Assembly: GCF_003334385.1 (NCBI RefSeq) | Contig: NZ_QOWN01000176.1 | Length of the DNA: 476 nucleotides | Source of the DNA: Escherichia coli | GTDB lineage: Bacteria; Pseudomonadota; Gammaproteobacteria; Enterobacterales; Enterobacteriaceae | Reading direction: 5' to 3' (one strand) | In this document: in pieces, positions 1 through 476 of the stretch | Layout: every line of letters starts with the position of its first letter | How positions within the stretch are numbered: position 1 is the stretch's first letter | The notes under the pieces: model-generated | Databases searched by the model: none | What the model saw: only the letters and a program-made list of their open reading frames with translations | Told to the model about the DNA's origin: nothing | Made by a program: the position numbers and the translations under genes

Positions 1-107
1 TCAACCGGCCCTTCGCTGATGGCATCGATCACACTCAGCAACTGCGTGGACTTCAGGTTGTCCTTCGCTTCGCGCGGGGTATGCCCCTTACTGCTTCCTT
101 TACCCAT
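1..107 (-). CDS. J: Tip attachment / host specificity protein J (central tail fibre), N-terminal 35 codons only; gene continues beyond position 1
   Basis: Hand translation of the minus strand from ATG (complement of 105..107) gives MGKGSSKGHTPREAKDNLKSTQLLSVIDAISEGPV with no stop before the window edge. This matches the N-terminus of lambda gpJ as I recall it. It lies directly downstream of gene I with a 60-nt spacer, as in lambda, and is preceded by GGAG with an 8-nt spacer. It is absent from the ORF track because it is truncated by the window. Confidence 0.85.
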   Translation of the reverse strand, partial: MGKGSSKGHTPREAKDNLKSTQLLSVIDAISEGPV

Positions 108-119
108 TCCTCACGCTCC
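108..119 (-). promoter_or_regulatory. Ribosome-binding site (Shine-Dalgarno) for J
   Basis: Minus-strand sequence immediately upstream of the J ATG reads TGGAGCGTGAGGA-ATG. GGAG (complement of 116..119) sits 8 nt before the ATG, which is good spacing; a second purine-rich GAGGA abuts the start codon. Confidence 0.6.
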
Positions 120-120
120 A

Positions 121-149
121 TAAATGACAAAACCGCCCGCAGGCGGTTT
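121..149 (-). other. Intergenic stem-loop followed by a U-rich tract on the sense strand (candidate weak intrinsic terminator or mRNA structural element between I and J)
   Basis: Perfect inverted repeat: 130..137 aaaccgcc and 142..149 ggcggttt, with a 4-nt loop at 138..141. On the minus (sense) strand this reads AAACCGCC-TGCG-GGCGGTTT followed by TGTCATTTA, i.e. a 5-bp GC core extended by A-U pairs, then an interrupted U-tract (complement of 121..129). Confidence 0.4.
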
Positions 150-167
150 CACATAAAACATTTTGCA

Positions 168-476
168 TCAGCGACCAATCACCACAACCTGACCACCGTC
201 CCCTTCGTCTGCCGTGCTGATCTCCTGAGAAACCACGCGTGACCCCACGCGCATTTCCCCGTACAGAACAGGCAGAACATTGCCCTGGGCAACCATGTTA
301 TCCAGTGAGGAGAAATAGGTGTTCTGCTTACCGTTATCCGTTGTCTGTGTACGGGGAGTTCTGGCTTTCGGTGCCAGCATCTGCGCCACACCACCGAGCA
401 CCATACTGGCACCGAGAGAAAACAGGATGCCGGTCATACCACCGGCCCCAATGGCTGCCCCCCATGCTGCAAGGGT
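168..476 (-). CDS. I: Tail assembly protein I (lambda gpI-like), C-terminal 102 codons plus stop; 5' end lies beyond position 476
   Basis: The 89-aa ORF in the track (MTGILFSLGASMVLGGVAQMLAPKARTPRTQTTDNGKQNTYFSSLDNMVAQGNVLPVLYGEMRVGSRVVSQEISTADEGDGGQVVVIGR) matches the C-terminus of lambda gpI as I recall it. The same frame stays open upstream of the ATG at 435..437 to the window edge, encoding ...TLAAWGAAIGAGG before MTGIL, so that ATG is an internal Met and not the true start. Stop codon TGA is the complement of 168..170. Confidence 0.92.
   Translation of the reverse strand, partial: TLAAWGAAIGAGGMTGILFSLGASMVLGGVAQMLAPKARTPRTQTTDNGKQNTYFSSLDNMVAQGNVLPVLYGEMRVGSRVVSQEISTADEGDGGQVVVIGR

Follow-up and report, generated by a model that had tools for sequence, protein, structure and literature searches.

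A lambda-type tail-tip I–J junction from Escherichia coli and the terminator-like hairpin in its spacer

The stretch of DNA analysed here, referred to as the window, comprises 476 nucleotides and carries, all on the minus strand, the 3′ part of gene I (171..476) with its TGA stop codon (168..170), an intergenic spacer of 60 nt devoid of an ORF (108..167), and the 5′ end of gene J (1..107), which encodes the tip attachment/host specificity protein. An earlier note on the same DNA, which left the minus-strand location of both genes unstated, had placed the I stop at 168..170, the J start at 105..107 and a 60-nt spacer between them; all of these coordinates hold on translation. The remaining ORFs, two on the plus strand (34 and 53 aa) and four out-of-frame ones on the minus strand (77, 43, 25 and 22 aa), are attributed to chance; they overlap I, J or the spacer and no support for them was obtained.

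Translation of the minus strand from 168 to 476 yields a single open frame, which enters from the window edge and ends with ...GGQVVVIGR before the stop codon (written also as ...ADEGDGGQVVVIGR, then stop); the latter corresponds to lambda 15442-15444. The encoded fragment represents gpI residues 122-223 (102 codons), while residues 1-121 are outside the window, which ends inside gene I. Over the region present the homology to lambda gpI is evident, 101/102 residues being identical to residues 122-223 of chain I in PDB 8iyk (E = 2.7e-60), and in PHROGs the fragment falls into PHROG 4554, “tail protein” (1.9e-54), and PHROG 32, “tail assembly protein” (8.9e-38). At the matching coordinates lambda carries the annotation I and Escherichia phage PhiR30_1 “tail tip assembly protein I”, and the gene has the position of gpI, that is, after K, directly before J and on the same strand (K is outside the window and was seen in lambda and PhiR30_1). 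Neither a significant Pfam-A domain nor an NCBIfam family was found for the gpI fragment; a Pfam-A match to ThsB_TIR (E = 0.09) is considered a chance hit and not a defence signal, because the fragment is identical to lambda gpI in all but one of its 102 residues. Cryo-EM of lambda has revealed gpI residues 135-223 as a trimer in the lumen of the tail tip, which was interpreted as a plug and holds the C-terminus of the tape-measure protein; for the hydrophobic stretch 137-GILFSLGASMVLGGVA-152 an interaction with the outer membrane was suggested (PMC10721106, PMC12617516). Both the hydrophobic, glycine-rich segment and the plug domain at the C-terminus belong to the gpI fragment, and residues 135-223, including the 137-152 stretch, are encoded wholly within the window. 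Upstream of the window, the start of gene I is annotated unequally: 223 codons overlapping K in lambda (NC_001416; L001 2638-3309) versus 190 codons from the end of K in PhiR30_1 (L002 4737-5309). The records also disagree on where K starts, which is 14276 in lambda, whereas PhiR30_1 has a longer K.

Gene J begins with the ATG at 105-107 and is represented by codons 1-35 plus two bases; minus-strand translation of 3-107 gives MGKGSSKGHTPREAKDNLKSTQLLSVIDAISEGPV and runs off the window edge. The product has the N-terminal sequence of gpJ, MGKGSSKGHTPREAKDNLKSTQLLSVIDAISEGP, and is identical in 34/35 residues to chain J of PDB 8iyk and chain Ja of 9e7m; together with the match of the gpI fragment, this agrees with the earlier note, which had matched both translated products to lambda. 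The fragment matches positions 1-35 of the NCBIfam model NF049904, lambda_TipJ (E = 1.7e-16), where 35 codons score 59 bits, the curated cut-off of 1950 bits being one for the full-length protein, and belongs to PHROG 31, “central tail fiber J”. gpJ is the central fibre and the LamB-binding protein; the window encodes its first 35 residues, and the C-terminal receptor-binding domain lies outside.

In a megablast search against 50,697 phage records all 476 bases of the window were covered. The match to lambda (E = 0, 880 bits) extends over 15136-15611 of J02459/NC_001416 with 99.6% identity (474/476 bases), and the near-100% nucleotide identity over the 3′ end of I, the spacer and the 5′ end of J is what the earlier note had predicted. 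Laboratory derivatives of lambda (DE3, the imm21 and imm434 hybrids) are also 99.6% identical to the window, and Escherichia phage PhiR30_1 (PV340558) is 100% identical over all 476 bases. A three-way alignment of window, lambda and PhiR30_1 places the two bases that separate the window from lambda at positions 349 and 5. Both are nonsynonymous: at 349 the coding (minus) strand has C where lambda has T, resulting in gpI I164T, and at 5 it has G where lambda has A, resulting in gpJ I35V; PhiR30_1 shares both. Identical copies (100%) reside in many E. coli chromosomes, for example those of RM9872, GE3 and RM8352, and the hosts of these prophages are wild E. coli from cattle, humans, food and dogs. 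Overall, the segment was found in 4297 of 5426 complete E. coli genomes, at roughly 8700 places in total and a median of two per genome, and 658 records from that search are at least 99% identical to it. The two substitutions relative to lambda, taken together with the exact matches in many E. coli chromosomes, point to a close lambdoid prophage and not to lambda itself; judged by sequence, the source is thus a natural lambdoid prophage or phage and not the lambda reference, and of the two options offered earlier, lambda or a close lambdoid prophage, it is the second that stands.

An origin from laboratory lambda DNA, be it a cloning vector, a size standard or a contaminant, is very improbable. 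Lambda and its laboratory derivatives do match the window at 99.6%, and the record of a “Campylobacter phage CJLB-4”, which is essentially lambda, suggests that lambda DNA can carry unexpected labels; however, the same two bases differ between the window and every laboratory lambda record listed, while PhiR30_1 and the chromosomal prophages of many wild E. coli are 100% identical to it. The CJLB-4 record itself (MW057783.1; 48,361 bp, host given as Campylobacter jejuni) is 99.6% identical to the window and uses lambda gene names; its label looks doubtful, and contamination with lambda DNA is possibly the cause.

The match lies within a conserved order of genes (lambda, H-M-L-K-I-J; PhiR30_1, T-H-M-L-K-I-J-lom-stf), which confirms the I/J context proposed in the earlier note. 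We are about 93% confident that the window is the I–J junction of the tail-tip module of a lambda-type E. coli prophage or phage, lying on the minus strand, with a hairpin in its spacer that is read as a terminator; no observation speaks against the identity of the junction. The junction as such is already known and is among the best-studied gene junctions in virology; it occurs in about four-fifths of complete E. coli genomes. The window is ordinary prophage structural DNA, which can be set aside, and brings no new gene or system. That there is no defence, toxin or other accessory cargo, as claimed before, is true of the window, whose 60-nt spacer holds no ORF. Absent from the earlier note are the spacer hairpin and the genes which relatives carry inserted at the same junction; both are considered in the following.

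The spacer is identical, base for base, to lambda 15445-15504 (in NC_001416, I ends at 15444 and J starts at 15505). On the coding strand it reads TGCAAAATGTTTTATGT-GAAACCGCC-TGCG-GGCGGTTTT-GTCATTTATGGAGCGTGAGGA, followed by the ATG of J. Its central part, GAAACCGCC-TGCG-GGCGGTTTT (129..150, minus strand), forms a terminator-like hairpin with a 9-bp stem and a 4-nt loop, after which GTCATTT follows; five G-C pairs, three A-U pairs and one terminal G-U pair make up the stem. The predicted RNA fold of this 22-mer has −14.4 kcal/mol (z = −3.85), and with 3-6 flanking bases included (window 124-154) the values are −16 kcal/mol and z of about −4. A GC-rich stem with a short loop is thus present on the sense strand of the transcript, as is expected of an intrinsic terminator. 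The T-run, TTTTGTCATTT (122..132, minus strand), is interrupted, and its first four T's double as the 3′ end of the stem; in the RNA, UUUUGUCAUUU, four U's are followed by GUCA and then UUU, whereas relatives have 6-8 uninterrupted T's at this place.

The built-in terminator scan of the window did not list the lambda-type spacer hairpin; we infer that the rule of the scan extends the stem via G-T pairs into the T-run, with only four T's left among the eight bases that follow. It did report two terminator-like sites, 446-429 and 287-273, but these are inside gene I, have weak stems and are attributed to chance (expectation 0.4 ± 0.6). A promoter scan of the window found none, and Rfam, searched with permissive E-values, gave no real match; the only hit, the sRNA SpF10, reached 20.5 bits versus a gathering score of 60 (E = 0.23) and is likewise considered a chance hit. 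A more extended fold of the spacer, in which the region around GGAG pairs with upstream bases (−25.2 kcal/mol, z = −3.08), was dropped, as its outer helix is without matched changes among spacer variants; it is the core hairpin alone that is claimed.

Such variants were obtained from 79 lambda-type loci with a delimitable spacer, mostly IMG/VR contigs retrieved via the gpI fragment, which contain 25 distinct versions. The spacer is 59-60 nt long in 79/79 of these loci, and over the 25 versions the stem is invariant except for a single C-to-T change, which retains a G-U pair; variation is found in the loop (TGCG, TCCG, TCAG, TGCA), on the upstream side of the stem, in the tail, and in the bases beside the ATG. 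Two purine-rich motifs precede the start codon of J. GGAG (116..119, minus strand), 8 nt before the ATG, is kept in 24/25 versions (GGAT in the remaining one) and therefore is the likely ribosome-binding site of J. The second motif, GAGGA (108..112, minus strand), abuts the ATG and varies, being GACGA or GATGA in relatives; textbook-looking as this Shine-Dalgarno sequence is, it is probably not the functional one. The variation of GAGGA (at the equivalents in L003-L083) is seen among otherwise near-identical prophages, and some lambda records annotate a ribosome_binding_site at the I–J junction. With 60 untranslated nucleotides between I and J, the start of J would be independent, that is, J would be translated from its own ribosome-binding site GGAG, uncoupled from I.

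In more diverged phages, whose I–J junctions were located by tblastn, J is directly preceded by a GC-rich hairpin with a loop of 4 nt and a T-run, namely in mEp460, HK225, HK022, HK544, Fostie, phiES15, Eeyore and two Stx phages; a J-proximal hairpin with a T-run is present in every temperate enterobacterial lambdoid examined. The stem sequences differ between these phages (CCGCC/GGCGG, CCACC/GGTGG, CCAGC/GCTGG, GCACCC/GGGTGC). The built-in scan flags the Stx-phage hairpin as terminator-like, and the GenBank record of HK225 annotates its own copy as a rho-independent terminator (JQ086371 15508-15532); elements of this kind are known, and at least one relative has its copy annotated. No hairpin was found where I and J overlap or abut (gap of −4 to +9 nt), which is the situation in six phages, a small sample: Burkholderia KS9, Mannheimia 535AP2, Serratia Bonzee, coliphage BF9 (Dhillonvirus), Pseudomonas PMBT14 and Klebsiella Haden_MM8. 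At the corresponding loci (L088, L089, L091, L092, L094, L095) the overlap of the I and J homologues is 1-4 nt, or else a distance of 9 nt separates them. Within this small sample, the hairpin spacer occurs only in enterobacterial phages whose genome type is temperate or lambdoid.

A further 120 loci were retrieved with the pattern TTTTATGGGCGCAATATG, located downstream of the hairpin; the J proteins of these loci start MAT...KGRKGGSSSSRTP. A hairpin is located just upstream of J in 120/120 of them, a set in which the T-run and the distance to the ATG are fixed, since the pattern holds four T's and the start of J. When all sets are combined, 113/118 unique 60-mers upstream of J contain a hairpin with six or more base pairs, four or more of them G-C, versus 80/2360 shuffled sequences; the five 60-mers failing this definition have a single mismatch each. 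For the analysis of covariation, 71 distinct sequences, which are related to one another, were aligned without gaps and centred on the hairpin. In this alignment 95.1% of the cells are paired, a percentage inflated by the centring, which used the best pairing; six of the eight stem pairs change on both sides, that is, compensatory changes are present. The covariation score is 0.451 versus 0.190 in shuffles (0/500 shuffles reach 0.451) and drops to 0.04-0.15 when the pairing partner is slid by 1-3 columns.

The best-supported reading of these sequence features is that the spacer hairpin is a Rho-independent terminator, which would be a standard part of the I–J junction in temperate enterobacterial lambdoids. 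During late transcription of lambda, polymerase modified by the antiterminator Q reads through terminators. The I–J hairpin would accordingly be passed by Q-modified polymerase in lytic growth, while in the lysogen it would stop unmodified polymerase before J and the genes beyond; such polymerase might stem from stray promoters or, in relatives, from genes inserted between I and the hairpin. Regarding lambda's own hairpin, termination is probably measurable, an expectation held with some reserve because the T-run is interrupted, and for the same reason copies with 6-8 T's may be stronger. The terminator reading is also weakened by the omission of the hairpin from the output of the built-in scan, by the centring of the alignment on the best pairing and by the retrieval pattern of the second set. 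Nothing specific on termination between I and J in lambda, or on the 3′ ends of the late operon, was found in the literature; the insertion site treated in a paper on prophage sRNAs is the one downstream of PR′, not the I–J gap (PMC4104026).

Less likely, though worth weighing, is that the hairpin serves RNA stability or translation instead of termination. It could shield the I message from 3′ exonucleases or, after processing, stabilise the J mRNA as a 5′ stem; alternatively, hairpin and U-rich tract could keep the ribosome-binding site of J accessible and thereby set the gpI:gpJ ratio. In line with such roles, the hairpin ends 16-19 nt before the ATG of J in all types examined, and the extended fold of the lambda spacer described above (−25.2 kcal/mol, z = −3.08) pairs the GGAG region with upstream bases. 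Furthermore, I and J overlap or abut in the siphophages lacking the hairpin, which suggests translational coupling there, so that lambdoids would need an independent start of J. However, the spacing to the ATG is fixed by the retrieval pattern in the second comparison set, and the outer flanks show no obvious matched changes, as TG, CA, TA or CG upstream is combined with either GCG or GCA downstream. In most relatives, moreover, a GC stem capped by a loop of 4 nt and followed at once by 6-8 T's has the canonical form of an intrinsic terminator. A role in stability or translation and one in termination are compatible with each other.

The size of the I–J gap in relatives was assessed from 111 pattern-retrieved loci (IMG/VR) with an I homologue upstream. 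It amounts to 49-70 nt in 87 of them and to 200-1750 nt in the other 24; in the latter group, additional ORFs occupy the space from I to the hairpin, as in about a fifth of relatives. Among the named phages, HK022 has ORFs annotated “moron gene product” in the gap (L098 253-573), HK225 an 88-aa ORF (L086 728-994) and Eeyore a 185-aa ORF (L093 939-1496). Extra ORFs in the gap also occur in the IMG/VR loci (e.g., L156, L217, L187, L180, L135), and those of the relatives as a whole include putative lipoproteins of 248 and 131 aa, proteins of 199 and 317 aa, and also a convergent pair of 124 and 86 aa. PADLOC returned no match for eight of the cargo proteins of relatives, and PHROGs placed the cargo proteins mostly in families of “unknown function”, plus one lipoprotein family. 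Rfam gave nothing at E ≤ 0.01 on six related junctions.

A different situation is found in Stx2a-converting phages (L084 and L085, both 768-1012), where the gap comprises 245 nt without an annotated ORF. Immediately behind the stop codon of I it opens with a strong hairpin, AAATCCCGCAG...CTGCGGGA; a second, terminator-like hairpin is located 52 nt (T-run included) before the start of J. Neither an Rfam match nor, in a simple scan, a promoter-like site was found in this gap, which could be a small RNA locus or the scar of an insertion.

The distribution of extra genes bears on whether the lambda hairpin has a function at all. It could be a relic, as there is no gene between I and the hairpin in lambda, namely a functionless terminator left by an inserted gene that has since been deleted. 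Where additional ORFs follow I and precede the hairpin, as in HK225, HK022, Eeyore and 24/111 IMG/VR loci, the hairpin resembles the 3′ end of an inserted transcription unit, and PMC3594210 describes such units as equipped with a promoter and a terminator of their own. Nevertheless, a functionless remnant is quite improbable: the short form with the hairpin only (49-70 nt) is the majority state (87/111 loci). Compensatory changes preserve the stem from lineage to lineage, and among lambda-type spacers it stays constant although adjacent bases change, a pattern that argues for selection instead of decay.

The hairpin could be a boundary element kept by selection in the temperate lambdoids of enterobacteria, which would insulate J and the downstream genes from transcription in the lysogen and mark a preferred acceptor site for cargo of unknown function between I and the hairpin; this more specific proposal is put forward tentatively, and we hold it at somewhat less than even odds. 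Were it true, the 60-nt spacer of lambda would be an empty acceptor site for diverse cargo genes. From the comparison of sequences, the lambda spacer is in any case the empty form of an I–J insertion site. In the literature consulted, which was limited, no paper was found on a general conservation of the hairpin or on the I–J gap as a recurrent slot for cargo. In relatives the gap is such a slot, holding uncharacterised genes, and might serve as a cheap anchor for mining prophages for accessory genes.

Compared to known systems, the window is closest to genes I and J of lambda (NC_001416 14773-15444 and 15505-18903), for the products of which solved structures exist (PDB 8IYK, 8IYL, 8K35, 8XCG, 9E7M). 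The genes, their order and the 60-nt spacer are all alike, and the window differs from lambda by gpI I164T and gpJ I35V, that is, it carries the variant of PhiR30_1 and many E. coli prophages; there is no difference inside the window from PhiR30_1 and the chromosomal lambdoid prophages of E. coli. The terminator annotated in HK225 and its equivalents in HK022, HK544, phiES15 and the Stx phages occupy the same position as the hairpin, directly 5′ of J, and lambda and HK225-type copies share a design in which a GC-rich stem of 7-9 bp with a loop of 4 nt is combined with a T-run, as well as the downstream motif TTTATGG(A)GCG...ATG. They differ in the stem, which is CCGCC/GGCGG in lambda versus CCACC/GGTGG and others in the HK225 type, and in the T-run, which is interrupted in lambda; unlike lambda, HK225, HK022 and Eeyore have extra ORFs between I and the hairpin.

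Morons are described as insertions that bring along a promoter and a terminator of their own and are expressed from the prophage (PMC3594210). With the lambdoid morons of Juhala et al. (2000), as far as they are described in PMC3594210, the relatives have in common that they carry apparently self-contained genes, here between I and J. The window, in contrast, has no extra gene between its two conserved genes; it is without an inserted gene, and its spacer corresponds to the empty state. In P22-like phages a variable insert, the “ant moron”, is located just 5′ of the tailspike gene (PMC2629481), and relatives of the window likewise have their extra genes just upstream of a receptor-binding gene.
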